DNA of 16,527 nucleotides from a bacterium (GTDB lineage Bacteria > SZUA-182 > DTGQ01). The position numbers were made by a program, and so were the translations under genes. The DNA lies in NCBI GenBank assembly GCA_040752695.1, contig JBFMGO010000126.1, positions 1 to 16,527 of the forward strand, read 5' to 3'. Of this stretch, positions 1 through 16,527 are shown in pieces. Below the pieces are notes generated by a model. That model made no database searches and was not told the origin of the DNA. It was given only the letters and a program-made list of their open reading frames with translations. The stretch's first letter is position 1; every line of letters starts with the position of its first letter.

Positions 1-62
1 GCGGGAATCCATGCATGGTTGCAGCACCCCCCTGGATTCTAAGCCTACGCTCAGAATGACGG
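1..62. repeat. REP-like palindromic element, truncated at the window start
   Basis: GCGGGAATCCA...TGGATTC.AAGCCTACGC..AGAATGACGG. GAATCCA (5-11) and TGGATTC (33-39) are inverted repeats. The layout resembles the widespread GTCATTCCCGCG..GCGGGAATCCA / TGGATTCCCGCC..CGCGGGAATGAC intergenic palindromes. Confidence 0.6.
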
Positions 63-119
63 GAAATGTCCGTACTTACTGACGTATACAGAATCATAGA
101 TAAAAAGTGTCCGGTAGAG

Positions 120-456
120 AGATATATTTTTAATGAGCACTCCTAAATCCTTAATTGTATCCACTAATGCCTATTTTATTCGTTATTTCAAGGATAATGT
201 TTTTAATATTTTAATTATTTTTTATTATTTTATTTAAAAATATAATTTATACTTATTATCAAAATTATTTTTATTTTTTTAAAATATATGCTCCTTTTCA
301 TGAGATTTCAAATTAACTTTGAAATCAAGAGGGCGAAGCTATGATTTTAAATTAACATGAATTATTGTTATAAATTTATGAAATTTTCATCAAATTTTCA
401 AAAATCATAGCCGATAAACAGAAAAAAATTAAACTCAGTGGAGAAGTCATAATCAA
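120..456 (+). promoter_or_regulatory. Very AT-rich upstream region, probable promoter of the polysaccharide locus, with inverted repeats
   Basis: No long ORF and extreme AT richness. Inverted repeats are GATTTCAAA-N5-TTTGAAATC (304-326) and GCTATGATTTT (338-348) / AAAATCATAGC (401-411). An SD-like GGAG lies at about 440-443. The -35/-10 boxes cannot be assigned. Confidence 0.55.
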
Positions 457-1380
457 ATGTTCAATCCTTCAAATCTTCCATCGAAAAATTTTTTTCCCAT
501 GCCTCTCCTGTTTATCATATTTTTATTACTCCAGGCTTATCAGGCAATTGTTTTTGCTGCGCCACCAGATGTCTATAAGGTAGGAAATCTTGATGTTTTG
601 AAAATCAATGTAGCAGGAAGGCCGGCTATAAACGAGGTGTTTCCAGTCTCTTCTGATGGGACCATCAGTTTCCCTTGGTTGGGCAATGTATGGGTGGCCG
701 GGCTGACGGTGAAAGAGATAGAGGAAAAGATAACGGGTCTTTTAGGCCAAGATTACCTGGTGGACCCGAAGGTATACGTAAGCATGGAAAAGTATAACAG
801 CCAGAAGGTGATCGTATGGGGGGAAGTCAAATCACCGGGGACCTATGTTCTGACCGGCAGGGCCACCCTTCTTGAAATCGTAGCCGAAGCTGGCGGGGTA
901 ACGGAAAAGGCGGGCAGGAGGATCATGCTCTTTCGCCATGCCCTGGATGTGGTTGCCGGCATTGATGCTTCGGAGGCTGTCGAGGGAGTGATGAAAAAAG
1001 AGGGCCCGACGGTCATCGATATTGACCGGTTAGTGAAGGGGAGCGGCCTTGAGGGTGACCTGACCGTGTCGTCGGGTGATGTAATCGTGGTGGAGGCACA
1101 AAAGGATTCTGACATCAACGAGCAGCGCGTTTATATTACGGGCTGTCTGAGTAATCCTGGTGCCTATGATTATCAGAATGGTTTAACTGCCTTGAGTCTT
1201 TGCATCATAGCCGGAGGATTCACCAATCGTGCCGCCCCTCAGAAAGCTACCTTGGTCAGGAAGGTAAAGGGGGAAGATAAGGTGTATCAGATTGACCTTG
1301 ACAGGGTGAAGCGCGGCAAAGCCATTGACTTCGAGCTCAAGCCGGGGGATCGGCTGAATGTACCGGAATCTTTCTGGTGA
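457..1380 (+). CDS. wza: OPX-family polysaccharide export protein (Poly_export + 2 SLBB domains), short periplasmic type
   Basis: Poly_export signature YKVGNLDVLKINV...DGTISFPWLGNVWVAGLT...YLVDPKV. SLBB repeats VWGEVKSPGTY and ITGCLSNPGAY. Ends LKPGDRLNVPESFW. N-terminal hydrophobic signal ending VFA-A. The start could be the second Met (499). Confidence 0.9.
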   Translation: MFNPSNLPSKNFFPMPLLFIIFLLLQAYQAIVFAAPPDVYKVGNLDVLKINVAGRPAINEVFPVSSDGTISFPWLGNVWVAGLTVKEIEEKITGLLGQDYLVDPKVYVSMEKYNSQKVIVWGEVKSPGTYVLTGRATLLEIVAEAGGVTEKAGRRIMLFRHALDVVAGIDASEAVEGVMKKEGPTVIDIDRLVKGSGLEGDLTVSSGDVIVVEAQKDSDINEQRVYITGCLSNPGAYDYQNGLTALSLCIIAGGFTNRAAPQKATLVRKVKGEDKVYQIDLDRVKRGKAIDFELKPGDRLNVPESFW

Positions 1381-1406
1381 TGCGGGCACAGGGCAGGGGA
1401 GAGAGT

Positions 1407-4301
1407 ATGGAGCAAAGCAAAAATGATCACCCTCTCGATGACAGAGAGCAGATCAGTGAAGTTCATCTTCTGGATTATGTAACCCTTATCCGAAAGCGGA
1501 AATGGGTTCTCATTGCCTGTGTTTTGATCTGTGTGTCTGCGGCTATTGTTGTCAATCAGGTTATTGTTCCTCAGTATAAGGCCGAATGTCAGATCCTTAT
1601 CGATAAGGAAACGAACAGATCTGTGGTTAGCGGCGAGAACATGGAGTACCTGTATTACGAGACAGCCCTGTCGGAAGAATTGAGCTTCAACACTCAGCTT
1701 AAGATCATTACCAGCTACGAGGTATTGAAGCAGGTCATCGACAGGTTGAAGCTGAAGGAGCGCGAAAAGAGCAAAGAGTCAAAGGAGTTCACCGAAGGTG
1801 CCGGATTTGCATTCCATTTCAGGACTGCCGTCAGAAAAAACATTGAAAACCTGAGGGAAAGCATGAAAGGCCTGAGTGAGTTTCTCACCGGCACTGCAGG
1901 AGAAAAGCCTCATGGATCGAGGGCGATTGCAGGGGGAGGGGCCAAAAGTCTGGCCGAGGATCTGCCTGACAGCGAGATGGCGGCCCTGGTATCCACTCTG
2001 GCAGACAGGATAGAGGTTCAGCCCGTCAAGGATACCCGGCTGGTGAATATTTCGGCCAGCGATGAGGACCCCGTCTGGGCTGCTGCCATAGCCAATGCAG
2101 TGGTTAAGAGCTATATCGACTATGATACCTCCTTACGGTATAAGTCGGTCAGGGAATTTGTGAACTGGATCTCGGCCCAGATCGAGGAGATGAAGCAGAA
2201 GATAGACGCTGCCGAGAAAAAGTTTTTCGATTTTAAAACCAATAACAGGATCTATTCGATCCGTGAGAAAAAGGACATTGTCACGGGAAAAGTCACAGAC
2301 CTGAATAATGCCTATATCAGGATTCATACCGAGAGGATGGGGATAAAGGCGAAAATCCTGGAGCTGGAAAACCTGCTCAACCGCAGGAAAGACAAAACAC
2401 TGGGCAAAGACCTCATAGACGATCAGTTGCTTTTGGATCTCAGCAAAGAGCTTTCAAGAGAGAATATCAGGCTGGACGATTTGAAGCGGGATTACAAAGA
2501 CAAACACCCCGAGGTTGTGGATGCGGAGAGCAAGATCGAAATCCTGAAAAAAGAATTCACCCACACGCTGGATAAATCCCTGCAAGGGCTCCTCCTGCAG
2601 GATTCTGTCCTCAAATCCCGTGAGGACACGATCATGGCCGAAATAGCCAAACTGGAAGAGGCAGCCATTGCCGATAACAAAATCGAGGCCGCCTACTCGA
2701 TGCTCGAGCGGGAAGTCGAAACCAATAAGGTCCTCTATGACGTCATGCTCAATAAGCTCAAAGAAACCAAGATAAACGAAACCATGAAAAAAAGCAATAT
2801 CAGGGTAACCGAGCCCGCGATCATCCCCGAGTCCCCTCAAGGCAGTCAGAAAAAAATCAATATCGCCCTGGGTATCTTACTGGGCCTTTTGGGGGGCCTT
2901 GGTCTGACCCTTTCGATCGAGTATTTCGAGACCGGCATAAAGAGCGAGGAGGATGTAAAACGCTACCTGCAACTGCCGGTGATGGGCATCATCCCCGAGG
3001 ATGACAGTAAAGCGGCCAGGGGAACCAAAACGACCGATGCGGCTGATTCGATTAAGACTGCCGCTCACAGGAAAAAGCCGGTGAAATTTCCCCTTTTGAG
3101 CAACCAACACTGCTCGACGGCTTTTTGCGAAGCGTACAGGAGTCTGAGGACCAACCTTACCTATTCTCTGGGGAGCGGCACATCGAGTAAATCCATCCTG
3201 GTCACCAGCAGCATCCCCCAGGAGGGCAAATCAACTACCGCCTCGAATCTGGCCCTCACCCTGGCCCAGGCTGGCGAGCGGATCATTTTGATCGATACCG
3301 ACCTGAGAGTGCCCTCTATCCATAAACGATTCCACATGGACCACAAAAGAAAGGGACTGACCAATATCCTGGTCGACCTGTTTAATACTCCCCTGCATGA
3401 AGGCACCCTCGACGAATACAGTCTTGGCGACATCATAAGCCTGATCAATATCCAGGGCAGAAGCGGCACCCTCACCATATCGGACCGCTCGGAGCACTTT
3501 TCGCTCTTCTTCAAAGAGGGGGAACTCATCGATGCCCAGACCAAAAACCGCCCGGAAGAAAAAAGACTGGGCTCTCTGCTGACAGCCAGTCAGAAGATTA
3601 CCGAAGAGCAAAAGAAAAATGCCCTTAAGGAGCAGGATTACTACCATGAACGGCTGGGCTTAATTCTCCTGAACATGAACCTTTTGACTCCCGATGATTT
3701 GAGAGGCCCTGTCACCCTCCATTTTTCTTCGACCATGAACAGAATACTGAGCTTAAAGACAGGATACTTCAGCTTCAAAGACGGATGCCCCCAACAGACC
3801 GATACCGGTGATTACCTGAAGGATAAATTCCCCTCATGGCAAAAGACCTTCCAGATGCAGGCAGCTCCTTTTCTGGAACACACTATCTTTTCCATCCTTC
3901 AGGACTCTCCCCTGGAGAATCTGAAAGTGCTGACCTCAGGCCCCCTGCCTTCAAACCCTTCCGAATTGCTCAGTTCCCGGCGCATGAAGGCACTTATGCA
4001 TATTCTCAAAGGAAGATTCGACTACCTTGTCCTGGATTCACCCCCCATCAATTCCGTAACCGATGCTTCCATCCTGGCCTCACTGGTCGATGGGGTCATC
4101 CAGGTGTTGCACGTGGGCCATACCCATCGCAAAACCATCATCAAAGCCAAAGAACAACTCGACAGCATCGGAGCCAGAATCTTCGGCGTGGTCATGAACC
4201 GCCTCGACCTGAAAAAAGAGGGATACTACTACTCCTATCACTACTACCAGTACGGCACTACCCTTGGCCAAAAAGAGGAAAAAATAACCACACCCACTTA
4301 A
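1407..4301 (+). CDS. wzc: Wzc/GumC-like polysaccharide co-polymerase with BY tyrosine kinase domain and an inserted DUF4388/MshEN-like module
   Basis: Wzz-like N-terminus (HLLDYVTLIRKRKW + TM), periplasmic coiled coils, HPEV motif and a second TM. EAYRSLRTNL, Walker A SSIPQEGKST (3207-3236), Walker A' IDTDLRVP (3291-3314), Walker B YLVLDSPP (4023-4046) and Tyr cluster GYYYSYHYYQY (4221-4253). ATG 1407 follows GGGGAGAG. GTG 1377 or ATG 1380, overlapping the wza stop, are alternative starts. Confidence 0.93.
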   Translation: MEQSKNDHPLDDREQISEVHLLDYVTLIRKRKWVLIACVLICVSAAIVVNQVIVPQYKAECQILIDKETNRSVVSGENMEYLYYETALSEELSFNTQLKIITSYEVLKQVIDRLKLKEREKSKESKEFTEGAGFAFHFRTAVRKNIENLRESMKGLSEFLTGTAGEKPHGSRAIAGGGAKSLAEDLPDSEMAALVSTLADRIEVQPVKDTRLVNISASDEDPVWAAAIANAVVKSYIDYDTSLRYKSVREFVNWISAQIEEMKQKIDAAEKKFFDFKTNNRIYSIREKKDIVTGKVTDLNNAYIRIHTERMGIKAKILELENLLNRRKDKTLGKDLIDDQLLLDLSKELSRENIRLDDLKRDYKDKHPEVVDAESKIEILKKEFTHTLDKSLQGLLLQDSVLKSREDTIMAEIAKLEEAAIADNKIEAAYSMLEREVETNKVLYDVMLNKLKETKINETMKKSNIRVTEPAIIPESPQGSQKKINIALGILLGLLGGLGLTLSIEYFETGIKSEEDVKRYLQLPVMGIIPEDDSKAARGTKTTDAADSIKTAAHRKKPVKFPLLSNQHCSTAFCEAYRSLRTNLTYSLGSGTSSKSILVTSSIPQEGKSTTASNLALTLAQAGERIILIDTDLRVPSIHKRFHMDHKRKGLTNILVDLFNTPLHEGTLDEYSLGDIISLINIQGRSGTLTISDRSEHFSLFFKEGELIDAQTKNRPEEKRLGSLLTASQKITEEQKKNALKEQDYYHERLGLILLNMNLLTPDDLRGPVTLHFSSTMNRILSLKTGYFSFKDGCPQQTDTGDYLKDKFPSWQKTFQMQAAPFLEHTIFSILQDSPLENLKVLTSGPLPSNPSELLSSRRMKALMHILKGRFDYLVLDSPPINSVTDASILASLVDGVIQVLHVGHTHRKTIIKAKEQLDSIGARIFGVVMNRLDLKKEGYYYSYHYYQYGTTLGQKEEKITTPT

Positions 4302-4623
4302 AAAAACGTCTGATGAGTTAAACTGTACCCTTTAATACAGGGCGCGGAAATTCCCCGTGCGGTTTTATTGGAATAGGGCCATGGGTCGAAAAAGATCCCC
4401 TCACTTCCTTAATATTAAAGGTGGATAAAAGCCCTTTATCACACCAGGGAAGAAGGACAATAATCGTTTTACCGCGCCGTTTATTGAGCCTGATAGTTAA
4501 CAACAAAAGGAGTTGATAAAGCAGGTCATATTCTTCCCGTCGCAAGTGGCCAGCCCGATTCTATAAAGGCATCCCCGAACACGATGCGGAAGAAGTCTTA
4601 ACCGTGCGAGGGAAAGTCTCGAC

Positions 4624-4648
4624 CGTCATTCCTGCCCATCACGGGATC
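4624..4648 (+). repeat. Degenerate REP-like half element
   Basis: CGTCATTCCTGCCCATCACGGGATC. CCGTCATTC (4623-4631) is the reverse complement of GAATGACGG (54-62). Confidence 0.4.
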
Positions 4649-4675
4649 AAAAATACCCGGGAGTGAAAGCATCCT

Positions 4676-5533
4676 ATGAATAAGCCGTTATTTTTTAAAA
4701 ATAAGGAGAATGGTTATAACCTTTTTGGTTTTCTCTTGCAACCAGAAAGAGAAACGACAAATAACCGAAGGGGTATTGTATTTTGTGATTCGATCGGGAC
4801 TGAGAAACTCTATAGCCATAGAGTCCTGGTTAATTTTGCCAGACTCCTTCGTGCACAAGGTTATCATGTATTCCTATTTGATTATTATGGAAATGGCGAC
4901 AGTGAGGGAGACTTTGAAAATACAAAATTGGATACGTGCTTATCCGATACGAAAGCAGCAATTGAATTCTTAATGGAAGAAGCAAAGATAGATGAACTCG
5001 GCTTATTAGGGGTAAGATTAGGAGCTGTTTTTGCTTCCTTGCTTGCGGCAAAAGAAAAAATAATAAAAAATCTTATCTTATGGTCGCCGATTATAGACGT
5101 TGGAAAGTATATTAATGATTCTCTCAGGGAGAATATAAACTTACAACTGAACATTTATAAAAAGATACAATTTAACCGGATGCAGTTAATAGAGCAAATA
5201 ATGAATAATATTCCTGTGGAGATCCAAGGCTATGTAATATCCAAAGATTTTTATAATAGTTTTTCCCAGGTTGATCTGAAAAAAATACAGTTGCAATTCG
5301 ATACCAGAACCTTAGTGATAGAGATACAAAAAATGACAACTTCTGTAAGTAAAGAGATTACCATGCTTTTTAAAGATAATAATCAATGCTTCAGAACAGT
5401 AGTGCCGGAGGATCCCTTCTGGATCTACAGAGGGGCAAACCACAAATATGTAACCAAATCGAAGGTCCTTTTTGAAAGGACACTTAGCTGGCTAGAGGTG
5501 TTCGATGGTAATGGAAGAGCCTGTAAGGTTTAA
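4676..5533 (+). CDS. Alpha/beta-hydrolase-fold protein, similar to exosortase A system-associated hydrolase 2
   Basis: FDYYGNGDSEGDF motif, nucleophile elbow GVRLG (Arg in place of Ser), LILWSPI and C-terminal DPFW. Confidence 0.8.
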   Translation: MNKPLFFKNKENGYNLFGFLLQPERETTNNRRGIVFCDSIGTEKLYSHRVLVNFARLLRAQGYHVFLFDYYGNGDSEGDFENTKLDTCLSDTKAAIEFLMEEAKIDELGLLGVRLGAVFASLLAAKEKIIKNLILWSPIIDVGKYINDSLRENINLQLNIYKKIQFNRMQLIEQIMNNIPVEIQGYVISKDFYNSFSQVDLKKIQLQFDTRTLVIEIQKMTTSVSKEITMLFKDNNQCFRTVVPEDPFWIYRGANHKYVTKSKVLFERTLSWLEVFDGNGRACKV

Positions 5534-6467
5534 AAACAGAGCAAAGTACGAGCTTTACGGAATAGCTCATATCCCATCTAAAAACGAAGTGGAGAAAAAA
5601 GTCGGACTTATTTTTTTAAACGCGGGGCTCGGGGATAGAATTGCCTTCAACAGGCTGCATGTTACTCTGAGCAGGAGACTGGCTCAAAACGGCTTTTATT
5701 CCTTGCGCTTCGACCCCGCTGGTCTTGGAGAAAGCGAAGGGGATATAGAAGAAGCTATGCTTTTTGATCTCTATGCTTCAATCAATAAGGGACGATTTAT
5801 TCATGACGTGATAGACGCTGTCGAATTTTTTACCAGTAAGTATGGGCTGGAAGAAATTGTCCTGGCTGGATTATGTGGTGGAGCAACAACAGCTTTACTT
5901 GCAGCGCCACACTGTGGAAAAGTAAGTTCACTTATCCTTATGGGATTTCCCGTCCTTTTTAGTCCTCTCGATGCAAAAAAAGGTGTTCTGGATCCTACAT
6001 CCGCTCAGTATCTATTGAAAAATCAGCTTATCCGGCTTATAAATTTTAAGATACCGATCCTAAGCTCCTGGAATACCATACTCGGAAAAATCAAAAACGA
6101 CGGATTATTTGAACTGACAGCTAACTTATTGAAATCCTGGTTGACGGTCTTCAAAAAATCGCATAATAGTTTCCATCCTAACTTTAACAAATTGTCCTTG
6201 GATACACTTGAAAGAGTGAGAGGAAGTATAGATATAAACTTCATTTTCGGAGAATGCGATATGTGGAAACTATACTTTGAGGAGGAATTTGAGCAAAAAG
6301 TAGGCAAGGATTGTGAAAATAAATATTTTTATAGAAAATTTATTATTAAGAATGCAAATCACACCTTTACATTCCGAGAATGCCACAATGAATTAATTGA
6401 TGTCATTCAATATGTCATAAGTAATAAGATTAATTCTCAATTAAGGAAAATATCATATCCTCTATGA
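5505..6467 (+). CDS. Alpha/beta-hydrolase-fold protein, similar to exosortase A system-associated hydrolase 1
   Basis: LRFDPAGLGESEG motif, nucleophile elbow GLCGG (Cys), FIFGECD and ANHTF (candidate catalytic His). Overlaps the end of the upstream gene. The start could be ATG 5511. Confidence 0.8.
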   Translation: MVMEEPVRFKNRAKYELYGIAHIPSKNEVEKKVGLIFLNAGLGDRIAFNRLHVTLSRRLAQNGFYSLRFDPAGLGESEGDIEEAMLFDLYASINKGRFIHDVIDAVEFFTSKYGLEEIVLAGLCGGATTALLAAPHCGKVSSLILMGFPVLFSPLDAKKGVLDPTSAQYLLKNQLIRLINFKIPILSSWNTILGKIKNDGLFELTANLLKSWLTVFKKSHNSFHPNFNKLSLDTLERVRGSIDINFIFGECDMWKLYFEEEFEQKVGKDCENKYFYRKFIIKNANHTFTFRECHNELIDVIQYVISNKINSQLRKISYPL

Positions 6468-6569
6468 ATACTTTTACTTCATTGGAATCGCCGTGAGTGA
6501 GCGAGGCGTTTCATCAAATAAGGGAATAATGGCAGCAATAAAAAGAAGGAGAAAGGTGGTAAAGGCATA

Positions 6570-8303
6570 ATGATTAAAGTAGCTGTAGCAGGGGCAGGTT
6601 ATTGGGGAAAGAATCTGGTACGGAATTTTTATGAACTTGGCGTATTAAAGTCAGTCTGCGATAGACAGCAGGGCTTAAGCCAGCAATACCTGAAATACCC
6701 CGGCCTTATCTTTACTGACGATCTCCAGTCAATTATGGATGATCAGGAATTAGCGGCTGTGGTCATTGCCACGCCAGCACAGACCCATTATTCCCTGGTT
6801 CGTCAGGCCCTTCTTGCGGGTAAGCATGTTTTTGTGGAAAAACCTCTGGCCCTGGATGTAGCCCATGGCGAGGAGTTAGTCTTACTAGCTGCCCAAAAGG
6901 GGCTGATTCTCATGGTTGGGCATATCCTTCAGTATCATCCGGCTGTTCTGAAGCTTAAGCAGCTTATCGACCAGGGAGAGCTGGGCCAGATCGGGTATGT
7001 TTATTCCAACAGGCTCAACATGAGTACAAACCGATCCGAGGAGAATATTCTCTTTAGCTTTGCTCCTCATGATATCTCTGCCATTCTTATGCTCTTGAAC
7101 GAATTACCGGTGAGCATCCAGGTCAGCGGAGGGGAATACCTGCAAAAGAAGGTGACGAATGTGACGTTTACCTTTATGCAGTTTAATAGTGGCGTCGATG
7201 CACACATTTTTGTCAATTGGCTTCATCCCTACAAGGAACAAAAGCTGATAGTTATCGGTGATAGGCAAATGGCTGTCTTTGATGATATCAGTGAGGAGAA
7301 ACTTTTCCTATACCCTCACACTATCGAATGGAAAGATAGACTGCCTGTAGCCAGCAAGGTCCAGGCCATGCCTGTTCCCTTCCAGATGGAAGAGCCTTTA
7401 CGTGCCGAATGCCAGCACTTTTTGACCTGCATCCAGGAGAAAAAGCAGCCTCGCACCAATGGCCAGGAGGGCTTACGGGTTCTCAGGGTACTTCAGGCCT
7501 GCCAGAAATCCCTTGACCATCAGGGAGAGAAAATTGCCATTGCGGGTCAGTCGACCCGATTGAATTCGATTTCAGGAACGTTTTCAGTCTCTTATATCCA
7601 TCCCACGGTGGAAATTGATAAAGGGTGCATTATCGGGGAGGGAACAACGATCTGGCATTTTTCCCATGTTATGAAGGAAAGTATCATTGGCCGCGACTGC
7701 CGTATAGGTCAGTATGTGGTCATCGGTCCTAAAGTCACTATCGGAAATGGATGCAAGATCCAAAACAACGTCTCGATCTATGAAGGGGTAACCCTGGAAG
7801 ATGATGTCTTTTGCGGCACCTCCATGGTCTTCACCAATGTTTTTAATCCCAGGGCAGACATGCCCGGGATGGGTGAATTACGTCCTACTCTGATCAAAAG
7901 GGGTGCTACCATCGGCGCCAATGCCACTATCATCTGTGGCCATACAATCGGCCAATACGCCTTTATCGGCGCTGGTGCGGTGGTGACTCACGATGTTCCG
8001 GATCATGCACTGATGGTAGGGAACCCGGCCAGAATCGCTGGCTGGATGTGCACCTGTGGTAATAAGATAAAGGTAGGGGGGCAGGAGGGGCACTGCCCGA
8101 TCTGCAAAAAAGTATATATCATGGATAATGGCCGGATCAGGGGGAACCCAAAGTTAAGTCCTGAGGCAGGACCTAAGGGAAGTCCTGAGAGAAATCCTGA
8201 AGTAAGTCCTGAAGTAAGTCCTGGAATAACAATAGAAACCCTTTTCAGCGATTCTGAAATTGACCAGCCTGCGAACAAAGAATCCACCTCAAAGAGGTAC
8301 TGA
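6570..8303 (+). CDS. Fusion of a Gfo/Idh/MocA oxidoreductase (WbpB/WlbA-like) and a hexapeptide-repeat N-acetyltransferase (WbpD/WlbB-like), 2,3-diacetamido-uronic acid pathway
   Basis: N-half has GAGYWG, HVFVEKP and FAPHD. C-half has YIHPT...IWHFSHV...IGQ...KIQNNVSIYEGVTLED...MVFTNVFNPR...IGANATIICG...GNPAR and a Cys motif WMCTCG...CPIC. Confidence 0.88.
   Translation: MIKVAVAGAGYWGKNLVRNFYELGVLKSVCDRQQGLSQQYLKYPGLIFTDDLQSIMDDQELAAVVIATPAQTHYSLVRQALLAGKHVFVEKPLALDVAHGEELVLLAAQKGLILMVGHILQYHPAVLKLKQLIDQGELGQIGYVYSNRLNMSTNRSEENILFSFAPHDISAILMLLNELPVSIQVSGGEYLQKKVTNVTFTFMQFNSGVDAHIFVNWLHPYKEQKLIVIGDRQMAVFDDISEEKLFLYPHTIEWKDRLPVASKVQAMPVPFQMEEPLRAECQHFLTCIQEKKQPRTNGQEGLRVLRVLQACQKSLDHQGEKIAIAGQSTRLNSISGTFSVSYIHPTVEIDKGCIIGEGTTIWHFSHVMKESIIGRDCRIGQYVVIGPKVTIGNGCKIQNNVSIYEGVTLEDDVFCGTSMVFTNVFNPRADMPGMGELRPTLIKRGATIGANATIICGHTIGQYAFIGAGAVVTHDVPDHALMVGNPARIAGWMCTCGNKIKVGGQEGHCPICKKVYIMDNGRIRGNPKLSPEAGPKGSPERNPEVSPEVSPGITIETLFSDSEIDQPANKESTSKRY
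8148..8231 (+). repeat. Seven degenerate in-frame 12-bp tandem repeats (consensus about CCTGARGTAAGT) encoding P-x-x-S-type tetrapeptides
   Basis: ccaaagttaagt|cctgaggcagga|cctaagggaagt|cctgagagaaat|cctgaagtaagt|cctgaagtaagt|cctggaataaca, translating PKLS PEAG PKGS PERN PEVS PEVS PGIT. Confidence 0.85.
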
Positions 8304-8428
8304 CATCTACTAGCCAGTCCCCGTCCACCTTCAGGAATGCTTTCCCACGTTATTAGGATACAGGGGAGGGGATTCCTTCAGAACGTAACCAATTATCTGA
8401 AAAAATACATGAGTAGAGGAGAATAGTC

Positions 8429-9784
8429 CTGGTAGCGCGTGATTCACTGATAGCTTTATTAGCCCGCCTATCAATGTTCGCGACCGCATTTGTCGGAAAT
8501 ATGATCCTGGCCCGGTGTCTTGGTGCGTCAGGAATGGGAATCTGGTCAATTATGGTCACTTTTCTGTCAATGATACTCCTCGTGTGCGGACCAGGTATTG
8601 CCTCGGCAAACGTATATTACGTTGCCCAGGGAAAACATACGGCTGGAGAGTCCTGGGCTGTAACGCTGCTGTTAGGCACCGGATTCGGAATAGTGGGGGT
8701 ATGTACGGGGAAGGTCTTGCTTTGGCTCAGATTTAAGAGCATAGCAGGGATTGAAGATCAGAGGTTGATTTTACTTCTTCTTCTATCCCTTCCTCTGCTT
8801 TATATAACAGATTGGGGATATAAAATTATCCTTGGGATGGACCGCATCGGATTAATGAACCTCTTAGGTTTAATTTCTAATATTTTTCACCTGGGCTTAA
8901 TAATACTGTTCGTCGAAATTATGAAGATCGGGTTATGGGGAGTGGTAACTGCTTATCTTGGCATGTATCTTTCCTCTACCCTGATGCTGATAGTAACATT
9001 CCTCATACTCATGCGACCAAAGGAATTTCGGCTGAGATGGAAAACGATACAATTGGATGTCGTGTATGGAGTGAAGATATACTTCGGTAAATTGTCGGAG
9101 TGGACCAATAACCGTATCGACCTGCTCATAGCACCATTATTTTTAGACAGCAAACAGATCGGTCTTTATGCTGTTGTAGTAGCGGTCACTGAGAAATTAT
9201 GGCTTATTCCCAGCGCGATATCTCAGGCTGTTTTTCCCAAGATATCAGCGGACATAAAAGGGCGGCCTGAATTGGTAGGGCGGGCATGTCGAACCTCCAT
9301 AATCATTATGCTTCCGATTATGCTTTTATTGATCGCTGGAGGATGGTGGGTGATACCTGCCTTATTTGGCAGTGAATTTCAAGGATCTTATCTGCCCATG
9401 CTCGCTATCCTGCCGGGCATCTTTATGCTTGGGATCAGCCAAATATTATCAGCCAGCCTGGCTGCGACCAACCATCCCGCAACGATATCTGCCGTTGTTA
9501 CGGTTGCCTCTGTAATCAATGTGATTTTGAATTTCTTACTCATCCCACGTATGGGAATTACCGGATGTTCGCTGGCCAGCACTGGTTCTTACACATTTCA
9601 GGCTGTGGCATTGCTTTGGTATTACTGCCAGTATACAGGTGTGCGCCCCGTATCGCTGATAAGAGTCCAATTCAGTGACCTGTTAATCTTGCTGAAACAA
9701 AGCAGGCAAATAATTGCTAATGGTTCGTATGAGAGGCAAGAATCTCTTCGCTTCAAATTATTTAATAAAATCTGCTCTCGATAG
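8429..9784 (+). CDS. wzx: Wzx-type polysaccharide flippase (MOP superfamily)
   Basis: Many TM segments, with motifs ILARCLGASGMG, RIDLLIAPLFL...IGLYAVV, AVFPKIS, LFGSEF and LNFLLIPRMGITG. The ORF track starts at ATG 8474, but the frame is open from 8417 and CTG 8429 lies 7 nt after AGGAG. The start is uncertain. Confidence 0.88.
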   Translation: MVARDSLIALLARLSMFATAFVGNMILARCLGASGMGIWSIMVTFLSMILLVCGPGIASANVYYVAQGKHTAGESWAVTLLLGTGFGIVGVCTGKVLLWLRFKSIAGIEDQRLILLLLLSLPLLYITDWGYKIILGMDRIGLMNLLGLISNIFHLGLIILFVEIMKIGLWGVVTAYLGMYLSSTLMLIVTFLILMRPKEFRLRWKTIQLDVVYGVKIYFGKLSEWTNNRIDLLIAPLFLDSKQIGLYAVVVAVTEKLWLIPSAISQAVFPKISADIKGRPELVGRACRTSIIIMLPIMLLLIAGGWWVIPALFGSEFQGSYLPMLAILPGIFMLGISQILSASLAATNHPATISAVVTVASVINVILNFLLIPRMGITGCSLASTGSYTFQAVALLWYYCQYTGVRPVSLIRVQFSDLLILLKQSRQIIANGSYERQESLRFKLFNKICSR

Positions 9785-9874
9785 AGAGGAATGGATCACT
9801 TTTGTACATGAAACATATGGTCCAGTTAAAGGAAAAGTAAAAAACAACCGGATTGTATTAACCCAAAAAATATT

Positions 9875-10969
9875 ATGATTAGTACATACCTGACTACTCT
9901 TTATTTTGTAAGCCTCGTGACAGCTCAGATCAAGGGAGGACCAGGCCATTTACCTGTAGTTTTTATATCATATCTATGCATAATACATCTCATATTCTGT
10001 AAGGAGCAGATTAACTTAGACAGGGATACGTCAATACCGCAACTCATTCTCATTTTAGCTGCCATATTGTCTCTCACTTTTCACTTCAATATAAAATGTT
10101 TGACATACATAATTGGATTCATCATAAATATCATTATTTATAATAATTTATTCAAACAAATTTCATTAAAACACTTTCAAATAGTATTTTTCTGCCTATT
10201 ATTAACGATATTTTATCCGGCCTATAATGGAAACCAATTATCTTCCATATACGGAAACTCCAATTCGCTGGGAATTATTTTATTATGTTTATTATATTTG
10301 TTATTTTTACTTTATAAAAATAACTATTTTATCCTCTTTATCTGCATCGTATTATCTTATGTCTTATTCCTTACAGGAAATAGATCCGGGATAATTAGCT
10401 TTGCTACTTTTTTTATTTTTTATTTTATTTATAAAAAATTTGGTAAAATATATACTTATATATTATTTTTAGTATTTTTAGTCGGTATAATTTCCTATTT
10501 AACTTATTGTGCATTTGCTACTAAAAATTTACTATATCAACTAAATATTACCTTTTACCAAAGAAATTTTCTCTACGCCTCCCAAAGAGATACGATCATT
10601 AAACATACAATTCCCAATATCGTAAAGAAACCATTCGGCTTAGGATTTGGTTTTAGTAGTAAAGATGCTATGCAAGGGTTGGGAGTAGATGTGACATCTC
10701 CCCACAATGCTTATTTAAAAATGGCCTTGGAAGGGGGCTGGCTCTTTCTTATTGCGTATATCTTACTCATTTTACAGGCATTGAGAAAAGCTGAGAATCC
10801 CGTAACAGTATCAATGCTCATTGCATTCAATATAAGGGTATTTTTTGATATAGCAACTCCTTTTGGGTATAGCATTATTTCTGCTTTGCTAATCGCGCCT
10901 TATTATATTGAAAAAGGCCTGAAACATCAAAAACACTTTAACCGACTGAAAATGAGATCTTTGCCTTGA
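9875..10969 (+). CDS. wzy: Wzy-like polymerase / O-antigen ligase family membrane protein
   Basis: Very AT-rich and highly hydrophobic. Motifs GNSNSLG, LTGNRSG, PFGLGFG and PHNAYLKMALEGG are typical of the Wzy_C/O-antigen ligase family. It lies next to wzx. Confidence 0.75.
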   Translation: MISTYLTTLYFVSLVTAQIKGGPGHLPVVFISYLCIIHLIFCKEQINLDRDTSIPQLILILAAILSLTFHFNIKCLTYIIGFIINIIIYNNLFKQISLKHFQIVFFCLLLTIFYPAYNGNQLSSIYGNSNSLGIILLCLLYLLFLLYKNNYFILFICIVLSYVLFLTGNRSGIISFATFFIFYFIYKKFGKIYTYILFLVFLVGIISYLTYCAFATKNLLYQLNITFYQRNFLYASQRDTIIKHTIPNIVKKPFGLGFGFSSKDAMQGLGVDVTSPHNAYLKMALEGGWLFLIAYILLILQALRKAENPVTVSMLIAFNIRVFFDIATPFGYSIISALLIAPYYIEKGLKHQKHFNRLKMRSLP

Positions 10970-11156
10970 GCCATCGATCAGCCCGATGCAGGTACCTTGC
11001 TATAGCCGGTTCGTAAACAATAAGACAATTGAGCCTTGGCATTTTTTAAGACAGGCTCTCATCAGAGAGAGGACAAAGGGGTGTTAAAATGGATATTTGG
11101 GTAAAAATAGTCAAGGTTGCCTTCTCAATTATGGATGGCATAGTAAGTGAACGGCA

Positions 11157-12323
11157 ATGAAACCGGTTATCTGTTTACTTGCCTCTGCGAAAAACATACA
11201 TACTGTTAGATGGGCAGCATCTTTAGCTGAGCGTGGGTATGATGTCCACATTGTATCATTTGTAGATAACACTATACCTGGTATTCGGGTTCACTGTTTG
11301 GCTTCCGACTTCAATATACGTGGCAACGGGTTTTATAAGATCGTTTATTGTTTCAAAGAAATCAGACAGCTGAGGAGGATTATCGCTGATTTGAAACCCG
11401 CTATCCTTCATGCTCACTACATCACGAGTTATGGCCTGCTTGGCGCTTTGACGAGGTTTTATCCTTTTGTTGGTTCTCTTTGGGGTTCTGATGTCTTTGA
11501 ATTTCCAAATAGATCACCCTTTCACAGGATGATGATTAAATTTGTTCTGAGTCGTTGTGACTACCTTTGTGCAACCAGTTGGGCTTTGAAAAATGAGGCG
11601 GAAAAATACACGAAAAAGGAAATAACATTGACTCCATTTGGTGTTGACTGCCAAAAACTTAAACCTGTGCTGCCTGGAAACTGTGATGATGCGTTTTGTA
11701 TAGGAACAATTAAATCTCTCGAAGATTGCTATGGTATAGACATTCTGATTGATGCATTCGGAGTGTTAGTAAACCGAAATAGAGGGAAAAAACTCAAACT
11801 GATGATAGTTGGAGAGGGATCTTTGAGGAAAACCCTTGAGGAGATGGCCAAAAATCTTGGCTTAGCAGATAAGGTAAAATTTATCGGCAAAGTGGAGCAT
11901 AGTTTAGTTCCCGCATATCTGAATCAGATCGATGTGTTTGTGGCGCTTTCAAGACGTGAGAGTTTTGGGGTTGCCGTCCTTGAAGCATCAGCCTGCGGTA
12001 TCCCTGTTGTAGTATCAAATGTGGGTGGGCTCCCTGAAGTTGTAGAGGATGGACATACTGGAATTATCGTACCTCCTGATGATAGGAATGCAGCAGCCAT
12101 AGCTTTAGAAAAAATCATGTTAAACAGCCAATTACGACTTAACCTGGGTGCTGCGGGGAGAGAATTTGTTCTAAAAAAGTATGATTGGAATAGTAACGTT
12201 ACACAAATGGTAAAACTCTATAATGAAATCCTTAAGGTCTACCCGAGAACTAACAGTCAGCACAAGTACCTATTACAAAATAGGTATCCATTGAAAAAAT
12301 CCCCCCCTGAGTCTGGCCGATAA
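11157..12323 (+). CDS. GT4 family (GT-B) glycosyltransferase
   Basis: HAHYITSYG, WGSDV, PFGVD, and the EX7E motif ESFGVAVLE followed by ASACGIPVVVSNVGGLPEVV. Confidence 0.92.
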   Translation: MKPVICLLASAKNIHTVRWAASLAERGYDVHIVSFVDNTIPGIRVHCLASDFNIRGNGFYKIVYCFKEIRQLRRIIADLKPAILHAHYITSYGLLGALTRFYPFVGSLWGSDVFEFPNRSPFHRMMIKFVLSRCDYLCATSWALKNEAEKYTKKEITLTPFGVDCQKLKPVLPGNCDDAFCIGTIKSLEDCYGIDILIDAFGVLVNRNRGKKLKLMIVGEGSLRKTLEEMAKNLGLADKVKFIGKVEHSLVPAYLNQIDVFVALSRRESFGVAVLEASACGIPVVVSNVGGLPEVVEDGHTGIIVPPDDRNAAAIALEKIMLNSQLRLNLGAAGREFVLKKYDWNSNVTQMVKLYNEILKVYPRTNSQHKYLLQNRYPLKKSPPESGR

Positions 12324-12447
12324 CTCACTTCGGATCAAGGGACAATCGTGGCAGGCCCCGGATCTCATTTCAGCCATGCTCTGCCGGGCTAATCATCAGC
12401 CGTACTTTTCAGGCAGGTGAAGGTGAAGACAAAATGGAGATATTCTC

Positions 12448-13671
12448 ATGAACACTTTACTTATACATCAGGCATTTGCTTCTCCGAAAGATGCAGGAGG
12501 AACACGTCACTTTGAACTGGGCCGGTATCTCGTTGGAACTGGAGACCGGTTCACTATTATAGCCAGCGATCTCAGCTACCTGACCGGAAAACGAAAGGTT
12601 GAAGACAAAAAAGCAGTGGCAAAACAGAATATCAGCGGCGTTGATATCTTGCGGGCGTATACCTATCCCTCATTGCACCGAAGCTTCTCCTGGAGGGTGG
12701 TTTCTTTTCTCAGCTTTATGGGCACTTCATTGCTGGCTGCACTGTCAGAAAAGGATGTGGATCTGGTCATGGGCACTACACCCCCAATTTTTCAGGCAGG
12801 CTCAGCCTGGCTGGTTGCCACATTACGCAGGCGTCCTTTCCTGCTGGAGATTCGTGATCTGTGGCCCGAGTTTGCTATTGCCCTTGGCATATTGACTAAT
12901 CCGCTGCTTATCAAGCTTTCCCGCTGGTTTGAGATTTTCCTGTACAGTCAGGCCACACATCTTTTGGTCAACTCACCAGCCTATCGGGACTATCTTATCA
13001 GCAAGGGAGTGCCAGAGAGTAAAATCACCCTGATCCCCAACGGAGTCGATGCCACGATGTTCGATCCTGAGGCCGCAGGGGAGCATATCAGGGAGAAGTA
13101 CAACCTCAATGGCAAGTTTGTGGTCACCTATGCAGGCGCCCTTGGTATGGCCAATGATATAGATACCCTTTTGCACGCTGCGGTACACCTGCAAAATGAA
13201 CCGGACATTCATTTCCTCCTGGCGGGCGATGGCAAAGAGCGGGGCCGGCTGGAGGCAGCAGCTAGGAAGCTATGCCCTTCGCAGGTGACTTTTACCGGCC
13301 CTTTTCCAAAAGATGAAATGAGGAATGTTCTTGCCGCTTCAAACGCCTGTGTAGCCACACTCAAAGACATTCCTAGTTTTCGCACCACGTATCCCAATAA
13401 GGTTTTCGATTATATGGCGGCTGGCCGTCCTATTGTGTTGGGTATCGACGGAGTGATCCGCCAGGTAGTAGCGGATGCCAAGGCTGGCATATTCGTGCAG
13501 CCGGGAGATGGCGCTGCACTGGCTGATGCGGTGCGGAACCTCTACAGGAATCCTGAGCAGGCTGCCTCCATGGGCATGGCCGGCAGGCTTTACGTAATGG
13601 AGCATTTCAACCGCTCCAAACATGCAGAGGATTTTGCACGGCTTGTTCGGAGACTGGCTCAGGTGCGATAG
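12448..13671 (+). CDS. GT4 family glycosyltransferase, WbuB-like
   Basis: GGTRH, TTPPIF, LEIRDLWPE, IPNGVD, YAGALGMAN and PNKVFDYMAAGRP. SD GGAG lies upstream. Confidence 0.9.
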   Translation: MNTLLIHQAFASPKDAGGTRHFELGRYLVGTGDRFTIIASDLSYLTGKRKVEDKKAVAKQNISGVDILRAYTYPSLHRSFSWRVVSFLSFMGTSLLAALSEKDVDLVMGTTPPIFQAGSAWLVATLRRRPFLLEIRDLWPEFAIALGILTNPLLIKLSRWFEIFLYSQATHLLVNSPAYRDYLISKGVPESKITLIPNGVDATMFDPEAAGEHIREKYNLNGKFVVTYAGALGMANDIDTLLHAAVHLQNEPDIHFLLAGDGKERGRLEAAARKLCPSQVTFTGPFPKDEMRNVLAASNACVATLKDIPSFRTTYPNKVFDYMAAGRPIVLGIDGVIRQVVADAKAGIFVQPGDGAALADAVRNLYRNPEQAASMGMAGRLYVMEHFNRSKHAEDFARLVRRLAQVR

Positions 13672-13750
13672 CCTAAACCAGTTGTTGCCAGGAGGCTGTC
13701 AAACAGAGAACTGATGGAGAGATGATAACCCGATGGTCGTTATCCCATCG

Positions 13751-13772
13751 CGTCATTCCCGTGAGGCGGAAA
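13751..13772 (+). repeat. Degenerate REP-like half element
   Basis: CGTCATTCCCGTGAGGCGGAAA shares CGTCATTCC with 4624 and CGTCATTC with the reverse complement of 54-61. Confidence 0.45.
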
Positions 13773-13880
13773 GAGCCTCTATGAGCTGCTCCTGTTACCT
13801 TTTGGGGGTTCGATTGATAACCTGCTGGCAGCTCTTATGCTCATGTGCGGCTCACGCAACAGTCAGGAGGTAATTATTCG

Positions 13881-14480
13881 ATGTATCGTAAATCTGGAAA
13901 GCGGATGCTCGATCTGTCTCTTGCCATACCATCATTATTTCTCCTTTCTCCATTACTAGCGTTATTGGCGATACTTGTCTGTATAAAACATGGGGCACCT
14001 GTTCTTTTCTTTCAACAACGACCTGGATTGAACGGGCAGCCTTTCAAGCTGTATAAATTTCGAACCATGACAGATGCTCGCGATGCCAAGGGCAACTTAT
14101 TGCCTGACGAGAAACGGTTATCCCCCTTTGGCCAATTCCTGCGCAGTACCAGTCTTGATGAATTGCCTGAATTATTTAATATTATCAAAGGGGACATGAG
14201 CCTTGTCGGGCCACGGCCGCTGCTTATGGCTTATCTTGACCGCTATACTCCCGAACAGGCGAGAAGACATGAGATTAAGCCGGGTATCACTGGCTGGGCA
14301 CAGATCAATGGTCGCAATTCCATCCGCTGGGAGGAAAAGTTCAAGTTTGATGTATGGTATGTAGACAACTATTCCCTATGGTTAGACCTGAAGATTATCG
14401 CCATGACTGTCGGGAAGATTCTCAAACGTGAGGGCATCAGTCAAGCTGGGCACGCCACGATGGAGGAGTTTAAAGGGTAA
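13881..14480 (+). CDS. pglC: Monotopic phosphoglycosyl transferase (Bac_transf; PglC/EpsL-like initiating transferase)
   Basis: KRMLD, a hydrophobic helix with LLSP, QQRPG...YKFRTM, RSTSLDELP, GDMSLVGPRP and KPGITGWAQINGRN. ATG 13881 follows AGGAGG (13865-13870) and is preferred over GTG 13845. Confidence 0.9.
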   Translation: MYRKSGKRMLDLSLAIPSLFLLSPLLALLAILVCIKHGAPVLFFQQRPGLNGQPFKLYKFRTMTDARDAKGNLLPDEKRLSPFGQFLRSTSLDELPELFNIIKGDMSLVGPRPLLMAYLDRYTPEQARRHEIKPGITGWAQINGRNSIRWEEKFKFDVWYVDNYSLWLDLKIIAMTVGKILKREGISQAGHATMEEFKG

Positions 14481-14572
14481 TAAACGGTTGTCCATATCAT
14501 TTATCCGTGCAGATAGAGCAATGGAAAAATGGATTTTTTCGAACAGCCATACAGCAGACAATGGAAGTATAA

Positions 14573-15214
14573 ATGCAACAAATTGTTGTTATTGGAGCAG
14601 GTGGTTTTGGCATTGAAACAGCCTTTTTGATAGAGGAAATCAACCGGGCCGAATCTCAATGGGATTTGTTAGGTTTCTTAGATGAAGATACCGGCAAACA
14701 TGGCAGACGGTTCAATGGTTACTCCGTACTGGGGAACCTGGATTGGTGTAAGGACAATCCCAAGGTAGCTGTAGCATGTGGGATCGGTAATCCCCTGGCC
14801 AGGAAAAGGATAAGGGATATTCTGAGGCAATCCGGTGTCCAGTTCCCGAATCTTATCCATCCAGGTGTTATCTGCTATTCAGGTAACGTTTTTGGTGTTG
14901 GAAACATCGTGAATCCCGGAAATATCCTTAATGTCAATGTAAGTATCGGCAATCACGTTTGTTTGGAATCAGCTTCTCTTATCGGGCATGAAGTGATAAT
15001 CGAGGATCTGGTAAGTATCATGCCCGGTGTAAAAGTGTCGGGGAATGTAGTACTGGAAGAAGGATGCTACCTGGGAACAGGGTGTACTATTATTCAGGGA
15101 AAGCACATTGGCAGATGGGCAACGGTGGGTGCCGGTGCCGTAGTCATAGAAAATGTACCACCCTACTCAACCGTCGTTGGCGTACCGGCAAAGATAATCA
15201 AAAACCAAAGTTAA
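14573..15214 (+). CDS. PglD/NeuD/EpsM-family sugar acetyltransferase
   Basis: GAGGFG, GFLDE, GIGNP, LIHP, hexapeptide repeats with IGHE, and VVGVPAK. Confidence 0.9.
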   Translation: MQQIVVIGAGGFGIETAFLIEEINRAESQWDLLGFLDEDTGKHGRRFNGYSVLGNLDWCKDNPKVAVACGIGNPLARKRIRDILRQSGVQFPNLIHPGVICYSGNVFGVGNIVNPGNILNVNVSIGNHVCLESASLIGHEVIIEDLVSIMPGVKVSGNVVLEEGCYLGTGCTIIQGKHIGRWATVGAGAVVIENVPPYSTVVGVPAKIIKNQS

Positions 15215-15341
15215 TCACCTGACCACATAAGATGCACCATCGTAGCAGCCAGGCGCATACAAAAACGGCTTCTACTGCAATAGATAATAACTGGCATGGT
15301 ATTGAATATACGTTATATTGAATAAATATAAAGGAGATGTA

Positions 15342-16527
15342 ATGTCAAGAGCAGCGCCGCATAAAGTTCGGGATAACCAGCATCTCAACGGCGATGGCAA
15401 GTCGAGGATTGAGACAGTAAAAACTGACTCAGAACTTCAGACACGGCAGGATTCACGGCCAAAGCGCATCTACCTTTCTCCTCCCCATATAGGGGTGGAG
15501 GAAATAAGATTTGTGATGGAGGCATTTGAAACCAACTGGATCGCACCCTTAGGACCGCAGGTGGATGCCTTTGAAGAGGAATTTTCAAAGACAGTAGGCT
15601 GCAAGCAAGCGGTTGCTCTGTCTTCAGGTACGGCTGCTCTTCATCTGGCCTTGAGACTGATCGGAGTAGGTCCGGGTGATGAGGTAGTATGCTCTACCCT
15701 GACCTTTATTGCCAGCGCATCACCGATTACCTATCTGGGTGCCAAACCGGCCTTTATCGATAGCGACCGGCTAACCTGGAACATGGATCCGGGATTGCTG
15801 GCCGAAGAGCTCAAAGAGCGTGACAAATGGAAGAGACTTCCCAAAGCTGTTGTTCTCGTCCATCTCTACGGCCAGAGTGCGGATATTGATCCTATCCTCG
15901 AAACCTGTAACCGATACGATATACCCCTGATCGAAGATGCTGCCGAAGCACTTGGATCCACCTACAAGGATCGATCACCCGGTACTATTGGCAGAGCTGG
16001 CATTTACTCATTCAACGGCAATAAGATCATTACCACATCGGGTGGAGGCATGCTGGTTTCATGTGATGATGCTCTCGTGAGCGGGGCTCGTTTTTTAGCC
16101 ACACAGGCTCGTGATCCGGCCCCGCATTACGAGCATTCGGTCATAGGCTATAACTATCGGATGAGCAACGTACTGGCCGGGATCGGCAGAGGGCAGATCC
16201 GTGCTTTGCCTGGACGGATTGAGGCCAGGCGGCGCAACTACGAATTTTATCATGCCGCCTTAGCCGATATTGACGGTTTGGAGTTCATGCCTGAAGCTCC
16301 CTATGGAAAGTGCACACGCTGGCTTACCTGCCTGACCATCGACCCGAATAGATGCGGTACAGACAGAGATGCCATCATTGCAGCGCTTAGCCGGGAAAAT
16401 ATTGAGTCAAGACCGGTCTGGAAACCCCTCCATCTTCAATCAGCCTTTCAAGGTTGCATATGCCGTGGCGGAACCGTGGCTGAAGATCTCTTTATCAGAG
16501 GTCTCTGCCTTCCCTCCGGATCAAACC
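15342..16527 (+). CDS. DegT/DnrJ/EryC1/StrS PLP-dependent aminotransferase (PglE/EpsN-like), truncated by the window end
   Basis: Manual translation from ATG 15342 after AAGGAG (15331-15336) gives RIYLSPPH, NWIAPLGPQVDAFE, SSGTAALHLAL, VHLYGQ, IEDAAEALG, SFNGNKIITTSGGG (PLP Lys at 16023), GYNYRMSN, ESRPVWKPLH and GLCLPSGSN at the edge. Confidence 0.93.
   Translation, partial: MSRAAPHKVRDNQHLNGDGKSRIETVKTDSELQTRQDSRPKRIYLSPPHIGVEEIRFVMEAFETNWIAPLGPQVDAFEEEFSKTVGCKQAVALSSGTAALHLALRLIGVGPGDEVVCSTLTFIASASPITYLGAKPAFIDSDRLTWNMDPGLLAEELKERDKWKRLPKAVVLVHLYGQSADIDPILETCNRYDIPLIEDAAEALGSTYKDRSPGTIGRAGIYSFNGNKIITTSGGGMLVSCDDALVSGARFLATQARDPAPHYEHSVIGYNYRMSNVLAGIGRGQIRALPGRIEARRRNYEFYHAALADIDGLEFMPEAPYGKCTRWLTCLTIDPNRCGTDRDAIIAALSRENIESRPVWKPLHLQSAFQGCICRGGTVAEDLFIRGLCLPSGSN

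Follow-up and report, generated by a model that had tools for sequence, protein, structure and literature searches.

A PATAN/DUF4388 domain with a nested MshEN-type motif inside a Wzc-type tyrosine kinase, a possible c-di-GMP input to polysaccharide export

The DNA analyzed here, called the window throughout, is the whole 16,527-nucleotide contig JBFMGO010000126.1 (C126) from the 6.05-Mb, 96.6% complete genome of a bacterium of the SZUA-182 lineage (GCA_040752695.1, here G000). It carries a Wzx/Wzy polysaccharide cluster whose second gene encodes a Wzc-type co-polymerase and bacterial tyrosine kinase (BY-kinase). The kinase domain of this protein is divided by a 166-residue insertion consisting of a PATAN domain, the domain that Pfam calls DUF4388, and the PATAN domain is itself interrupted at residues 730 to 782 by a predicted motif of the MshEN_N type, a receptor motif for cyclic di-GMP (c-di-GMP). 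In the structural model, the layout is one of three nested layers, kinase, PATAN, and MshEN_N. The features are collected in Table 1.

Table 1. Features of the kinase gene, its insertion, the surrounding cluster, and a second system in the same genome
Feature	Position	Strand	Basis or remark
Outer membrane polysaccharide export (OPX) protein (Poly_export + 2 SLBB, 307 aa)	457..1380	+	PF02563 E 1.1e-21, PF10531
Wzc-type PCP-2a co-polymerase/BY-kinase	1377..4301	+	nested insert; 974 aa counted from GTG 1377, with ATG 1407 the probable start
ExxRxxR oligomerization motif EAYRSLR (E585, R588, R591; aa 585-591)	3129..3149	+	sequence
Kinase N-terminal half	3186..3377	+	alignment; corresponds to CapAB 54-142
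Walker A	3210-3236	+	K618
Walker A'	3294-3308	+	D640/D642
Helix alpha5 GLTNILVD	3354-3377	+	sequence
166-aa insertion, loop after alpha5 (aa 668-833)	3378..3875	+	alignment + AlphaFold2
PATAN/DUF4388 first part (strand, helix, three strands)	3399..3563	+	Pfam + model
MshEN_N-type four-helix c-di-GMP motif (predicted), 24+5+24 residues, R730-Q753 + R759-H782	3564..3722	+	NF053729; 5HTL overlay
PATAN/DUF4388 closing helix + strand (RILSLKTGYFSF)	3723..3794	+	Pfam + model
Variable helical linker back to kinase	3795..3875	+	pLDDT 68-78
Kinase C-terminal half	3876..4220	+	alignment
Walker B	4023-4043	+	D887
Tyrosine cluster, 7 Tyr	4221..4253	+	sequence
Remaining Wzx/Wzy cluster genes	4676..16526	+	Pfam etc.; DegT aminotransferase cut by contig end
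Split system, same genome: OPX, 518-aa PCP, 422-aa stand-alone kinase	G000:C12 (L021:4349-8091)	minus	same insert

A kinase domain divided by a nested insertion

Pfam places Wzz at residues 28 to 123, GNVR at 442 to 512, and DUF4388 at 675 to 806 of the protein. Hydrophobic stretches at residues 43 to 63 and about 495 to 515, identified by eye, flank the periplasmic Wzz/GNVR region, giving the polysaccharide co-polymerase (PCP) layout of class 2a, two membrane helices around that region fused to a kinase. The database copy (P0002) is 964 residues long, consistent with the ATG start. TIGR01007 matches at 192 bits (cut-off, 108), the match being broken into two stretches. By alignment, K618, D640/D642, and D887 are the counterparts of K540, D562/D564, and D642 of Wzc, and the ExxRxxR motif has a described role in oligomerization (PMC11206214). 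The intact catalytic motifs predict that this is a working Wzc-type co-polymerase.

An alignment with Escherichia coli K-12 Wzc and five kinases that lack the insert puts the 166 extra residues between Wzc G588 and Q589. The original prediction, made from the letters alone, had seen a Wzc kinase domain split at 3378 to 3880, and the aligned boundaries agree with it to a few residues. It had also located GLTNILVD correctly and described the Walker A, A', and B motifs and the tyrosine cluster as intact in one frame, as they are in the frame 1377 to 4301. Its assignment of the insert to DUF4388/PATAN was borne out by Pfam (PF14332), with 71.1 bits against a cut-off of 25 over profile positions 1 to 98 of 122, and an E-value of 8.5e-22 for the insert alone. 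The nested MshEN-type motif, which is the likely input, escaped it.

Structure prediction, which had been suggested along with the original prediction, gave an ordered insert in the loop after alpha5. The AlphaFold2 model of the whole cytoplasmic domain, built from a 100-row alignment, has a predicted local distance difference test score (pLDDT) of 90.4 and a predicted template modeling score (pTM) of 0.85. Its kinase part overlays CapAB (2VED; Z 29.8, root mean square deviation [rmsd] 2.1 Å over 216 residues) and Wzc (3LA6; Z 29.0). Modeled alone (pLDDT 89.1), the insert runs through a strand, a helix, three strands, four helices, a strand, and linker helices, and the long fourth helix continues into the closing PATAN segment. 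Foldseek returned nothing for the insert model at an E-value of 0.001 or below; a VIA search found no clear structural relative of the PATAN scaffold and matched the helix bundle only. The first PATAN part and the MshEN-type motif are conserved about as well as the periplasmic domain, or better, in all ten full-length homologs, and the linker is the least conserved segment in most of the ten.

The original prediction proposed a database search for the architecture. That search revealed a recurrent family, in fused and stand-alone kinases, in the phylum of the source genome and in sulfate-reducer relatives. Among 389 proteins compared, 91 entries (90 of them distinct) have the nested domain between two kinase halves, with a median extra length of 168 residues; the median for 290 other kinases is 1 residue. 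Two word-index searches yielded 11 full-length proteins, including the query, along with shorter proteins annotated PF14332. Among the 150 proteins listed by a profile search of representatives clustered at 50% identity, at least 68 have the nested insert, and since some of these stand near the bottom of that list, the family size is a lower bound. A scan of genome contigs with one protein as query found only two distant members. Thirty-five of the 90 exceed 750 residues and 55 are shorter, being stand-alone kinases or contig fragments; the stand-alone kinases are encoded immediately downstream of separate PCP and OPX genes. Members are only 26 to 40% identical, yet the insert occupies one site in fused and split forms alike.

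Six of 20 genomes of the source phylum match at an E-value of 1e-70 or below, all from one order, and a seventh has a form with PATAN only. In the phylum of a Desulfobacteraceae genome (G042), matches were obtained in 15 of the 401 genomes sampled, scoring being limited to four candidates in each. The source names of members are Deltaproteobacteria, Desulfobacteraceae, Desulfobulbaceae, Syntrophobacteraceae, one "Odoribacter" metagenome-assembled genome, and simply "bacterium," and an anammox name appeared in none of 30 clusters looked up; NCBI labels some of the proteins "DUF4388 domain-containing protein." The Walker A, A', and B motifs are present in 87, 88, and 89 of the 90 members, respectively, and 73 members have four or more tail tyrosines. 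Three proteins with a similar short insert (P0304, P0340, and P0350) fell below the threshold for the 90-member set. A group comprising P0291 to P0371 keeps the MshEN and Walker motifs well, lacks the ExxRxxR helix, and has few tail tyrosines; these kinases possibly no longer build a classical ring.

A single origin of the insert is plausible from the common site. Kinase-only trees do not resolve or show it: FastTree, on 171 rows, produces a clade (support, 0.909) that holds 82 of the 85 rows with an insert plus four others, and in an IQ-TREE analysis of a 51-row subsample five changes are needed, of which the starred branches force only one.

The MshEN-type helix bundle and its ligand pocket

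NF053729, the NCBIfam model of the MshE-related c-di-GMP motif with a curated cut-off of 38 bits, scores 37.4 on the whole protein, 38.4 on the kinase domain, 40.2 on the insert, and 42.1 in the genome scan, over positions 1 to 47 of 53. Both 24-residue motifs, the five-residue spacer, and the four-helix bundle are present in this copy. The best structural matches of the insert model are MshE and the GSPII domains of PilF. Against MshE with bound c-di-GMP (5HTL), Foldseek gave an rmsd of 1.1 Å over 55 columns with a probability of 1.0, a second fold comparison gave Z 8.9 and rmsd 2.2 over 59, and the family profile matched with an E-value of 8.7e-11. NF053729 matches all 24 aligned members at an E-value of 0.001 or below, and the spacer is five residues long in 83 of the 85 members that have the complete bundle.

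The ten key MshEN residues are L10, G11, L25, L29, Q32, L39, G40, L54, L58, and Q61. In MshE numbering, this copy keeps R9, L10, G11, L29, Q32, R38, L39, G40, and L54, including both glycines whose replacement is most costly in MshE. There, G11L made binding undetectable and G40I weakened it 72-fold, compared with losses of 12-fold for Q61A, 10-fold for L58A, and 4-fold for L29V, and L25A was still stabilized by the ligand, with a melting temperature shift of 9°C (Wang et al. 2016, PMC5013675). Conservation over the 85 members is 0.67 in ligand-contact columns, 0.59 in the core, and 0.37 elsewhere; for the 15 closest members, the values are 0.83, 0.83, and 0.58. Within those 15, Q32, L29, L39, and R or K at position 9 are invariant, G40 is found in 14 and G11 in 13. 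Position 25 is K, R, or Q in 14 of the 15 and position 61 is His in all 15; because position 61 is Gln or His in 72 of the 85 members, a hydrogen-bond donor would be retained there. These alignments indicate a pocket that is maintained in the closest members, in altered form.

Several observations weigh against c-di-GMP sensing, and they are of three kinds. The first concerns this copy, which carries L25K, L58V, Q61H, G18Q, and G47N and has 7 of the 10 key residues by strict count and 9 by lenient count. Its NF053729 score lies near the cut-off, below those of PilB-type domains in the same genome (61 to 74 bits) and of its paralog (49.7 bits). The Foldseek E-value against 5HTL is 0.32, and GSPII domains that do not bind have the same fold (XpsE, Z 5.2; PilF GSPII-A, Z 5.8). 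The second concerns the family: all ten key residues occur in only 5 of the 85 members and both glycines in 50, and a complete ExxRxxR in only 38 of the 90. At least five of the 90 keep PATAN without the helix bundle, and P0289 has lost nearly the whole insert, with stubs left, so the bundle is dispensable. The third is that no c-di-GMP enzyme gene was found in the cluster with Pfam.

The incomplete set of key residues lowers the likelihood of binding without excluding it, since known binders also deviate. PilF GSPII-B binds at 6 nM although both arginines are replaced, and PilF GSPII-A, whose second motif is degenerate, is a nonbinder (PMC11731258). Strict scores across the 85 members range from 0 to 10, with at least 9 in 19 of them. 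Judged on these motifs and on the GGDEF, EAL, PilZ, and NF053729 matches of the genome, c-di-GMP binding by the family is likely, and the odds that this copy has a useful affinity are about even.

Most components of this architecture have precedents. The protein shares domain order, Walker motifs, ExxRxxR, and a tyrosine tail with E. coli Wzc/Etk, Staphylococcus aureus CapAB, Vibrio cholerae VpsO, and Burkholderia BceF, which are BY-kinases of PCP-2a or PCP-2b co-polymerases, and it shares the fold and the Wzx/Wzy cluster context with Wzc/CapAB-type kinases. The solved BY-kinase structures, in contrast, all have a loop after alpha5 that is free of any insert. The original prediction knew of no characterized Wzc of this kind, and a literature search likewise turned up no publication describing a BY-kinase with a PATAN or MshEN insert, although supplements could still list the architecture. 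The pairing of MshEN with a BY-kinase, however, was on record by 2016: Methylobacillus EpsG, "MshEN_N - AAA_31," is listed as a predicted c-di-GMP binder (Wang et al. 2016, PMC5013675, Supplementary Tables 3 and 4). EpsG (TIGR03029) resembles the present protein in that its motif, too, belongs to a tyrosine kinase for polysaccharide chain length. It differs in that the motif is N-terminal to the ATPase domain and without PATAN, in beta- and gammaproteobacteria, whereas here the motif is internal, nested in PATAN within the catalytic fold, and the protein scores 114.9 bits against the TIGR03029 cut-off of 313.8, outside EpsG.

With MshE (5HTL) and Thermus thermophilus PilF GSPII-B (8PDK) the insert shares the 24+5+24 motif and a fold superimposing at 0.9 to 1.1 Å rmsd over 50 to 55 columns; it differs in the absence of an MshEN_C subdomain, in the five substitutions of this copy (L25K, L58V, Q61H, G18Q, and G47N), and in a host that is a kinase instead of a pilus ATPase. 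PATAN domains have an alpha-clip, a two-repeat helical insertion in common with pilus ATPase N termini (bioRxiv 10.1101/2021.06.11.447907), and such an insertion in the PATAN scaffold is seen in cyanobacterial PatA-type regulators and Myxococcus xanthus MXAN_3211 as well as here. MXAN_3211 is described as a PATAN protein in one paper and as MshEN containing in another. In these proteins PATAN is usually N-terminal or combined with REC and linked to pilus control, in contrast to the position here, inside an enzyme domain, for which the literature consulted on PATAN proteins held no report. Already known, then, are the BY-kinase, PATAN with a helical insertion, MshEN_N as a c-di-GMP receptor, and the MshEN_N/BY-kinase pairing of EpsG; new are the placement of the nested module within the catalytic fold and its occurrence in both fused and split co-polymerases.

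Proposed c-di-GMP input and its alternatives

The original prediction suggested that the insert is a built-in regulatory input, an idea that the Pfam match, the model, and the alignment all support. We propose more specifically that c-di-GMP binding tunes the autophosphorylation and ring cycle of this kinase, and we give this proposal as much chance of being right as wrong. The insertion point lies three residues before the position aligned with Wzc I592, which is in loop L-alpha5 and among the most variable residues of Wzc (PMC11206214). According to the same source, alpha4 and L-alpha5 are displaced as Wzc alternates between its open and closed states, and ADP binding shifts L-alpha5 within a network that couples the active site with the interfaces of the ring (alpha2, alpha7/alpha9). 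Under the accepted model, the octamer repeatedly autophosphorylates in trans and comes apart, and this cycling drives polymerization and export (PMC12004946, PMC11986026). By sequence, the insert lies outside the interface helices, so ring formation need not be blocked. The insert could thus act as a ligand-sensitive lever on L-alpha5 that biases the open-closed and phosphorylation cycle.

The bundle would bind one c-di-GMP, probably more weakly than MshE, in the low micromolar range. Because the fourth MshEN helix continues into the closing PATAN helix, binding would be relayed through the PATAN scaffold to L-alpha5 and alpha4, where it would shift nucleotide exchange, ring assembly, and trans-autophosphorylation and ultimately the amount or length of exported polymer. 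We lean slightly toward stimulation at high c-di-GMP, in keeping with the part that this messenger generally plays in matrix production.

Direct c-di-GMP switches are best established in synthase-type polysaccharide systems (cellulose, alginate, Pel, and PNAG), and Wzc-type kinases are thought to be governed by a phosphatase and the oligomer cycle. The broader claim would be that c-di-GMP acts as a direct allosteric switch, through the kinase, PATAN, and MshEN layers, for a family of Wzx/Wzy co-polymerase kinases in a small uncultured phylum and its sulfate-reducer relatives. We hold this tentatively, at somewhat less than an even chance. If true, the biofilm messenger would be linked to the most common export pathway through that pathway's master regulator. 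PATAN would then serve as a mechanical relay through which any host enzyme could acquire a c-di-GMP input, and the relatives that have PATAN alone or no insert would amount to natural knock-outs. A ligand site within the kinase would offer a handle on BY-kinase allostery and assign a definite function to DUF4388; variants whose motifs are perfect, eroded, or absent occur in nature.

A serious alternative, if on balance a rather unlikely one, is that PATAN is a docking or localization module tying the export ring to a PilB/GspE-type ATPase, to a PilC-type platform, or to itself, the bundle being part of that surface or a relic. It deserves weight because Synechocystis PATAN domains bind the N-terminal domains of PilB1 and PilC and self-interact in two-hybrid assays (bioRxiv 10.1101/2021.06.11.447907), because the source genome has 11 T2SSE matches, several with MshEN, and because PATAN-only kinases persist in several branches. 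The seven most conserved columns of the insert, six in PATAN and one in the bundle core, are moreover not ligand-contact positions. However, the polar pocket positions Q32, Q/H61, and R9 are conserved without an obvious structural role, and no pilus genes were found among the annotated neighbors of insert-bearing kinases. Docking and c-di-GMP sensing are not exclusive and may coexist.

Two further explanations are less likely than either docking or sensing. That the insert is a passenger tolerated in a permissive surface loop, with no regulatory role here, we consider improbable: repeated partial or full loss of the insert and the erosion of the motif in many members are what it would predict, but retention of one site across such divergent fused and split proteins, and conservation rivaling that of the periplasmic domain, are not. 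More doubtful still is a switch of ligand in this lineage to 3',3'-cGAMP or another cyclic dinucleotide, with the fixed L25-to-K/R/Q and Q61-to-H changes retuning the pocket. These changes are indeed lineage-wide, and MshEN binds cGAMP weakly (dissociation constant, 3.3e-4 M), but its base specificity is set by the backbone amides that follow G11 and G40 (PMC5013675), and this copy retains both glycines. An assembly chimera is ruled out by independent homologs, the same junctions recurring in 90 distinct proteins of many sources, twice within this genome, and in five genomes related to it, and the insert (GC content, 0.49; GC at third codon positions, 0.62) agrees in composition with the rest of the gene.

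Genome background and the surrounding cluster

The source genome holds two insert-bearing kinases, one fused and one stand-alone, that are 49% identical; its remaining kinase matches lack the insert. The stand-alone paralog has the better MshEN motif. Downstream of its split system are genes for an epimerase, a B12-radical SAM protein, and an AMP-binding protein, in an order identical in G001 and G002. Profile matches in the source genome number 14 for GGDEF, 2 for EAL, 6 for PilZ, and 16 for NF053729, and by these matches it has c-di-GMP turnover genes. Six genomes of the order have the kinase. In five of them (G000, G001, G002, G005, and G008), all DUF4388 matches are in insert-bearing kinases, and the sixth, G007, has three others. 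Since DUF4388 is confined to the kinase in those five and no Roadblock/MglB gene was found in the source genome at its 96.6% completeness, the usual PATAN network is not evident. A PilZ gene lies upstream of the cluster in G007 (L029:14597-14950), and REC and CHASE2-cyclase genes lie downstream of it in G008 (L024:1339-6555); neither arrangement is conserved in the other genomes.

An OPX gene lies upstream of the kinase or its PCP partner at loci L021 to L025 and L027 to L030. The short OPX protein of the window resembles EpsY (E 4.8e-22, below the cut-off), and beta-barrel BBP2 genes occur on other contigs of the source genome and adjoin the cluster in L030, a hint of a composite OPX/beta-barrel exit. 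Unlike Wzc/CapAB-type systems, this cluster contains no tyrosine phosphatase gene (window positions 1 to 16527); elsewhere, the source genome has one match to low-molecular-weight protein tyrosine phosphatase (C13) and one to CpsB/CapC (C3). Promoter and terminator scans of the window gave nothing specific and Rfam had no match in it; a terminator-like hairpin at 4342 to 4360 directly follows the kinase gene.

After the kinase come two alpha/beta hydrolases, a Gfo/Idh-LbH fusion, a flippase, a Wzy-like protein, and two family 4 glycosyltransferases (GT4), and then a phosphoglycosyl transferase, a PglD-like acetyltransferase, and a DegT aminotransferase. The hydrolase pair (4676-6467) is nearest to exosortase-A-associated hydrolases 2 and 1, below the cut-off, and has a GC content of about 35 to 43%, compared with about 50% in the kinase gene. 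The Wzy-like gene (9875-10969) has a GC content of 25 to 30%, which marks the cluster as a mosaic. The gene at 6570 to 8303 fuses a Gfo/Idh oxidoreductase to a hexapeptide acetyltransferase and ends in a short, repeated, proline-rich tail.

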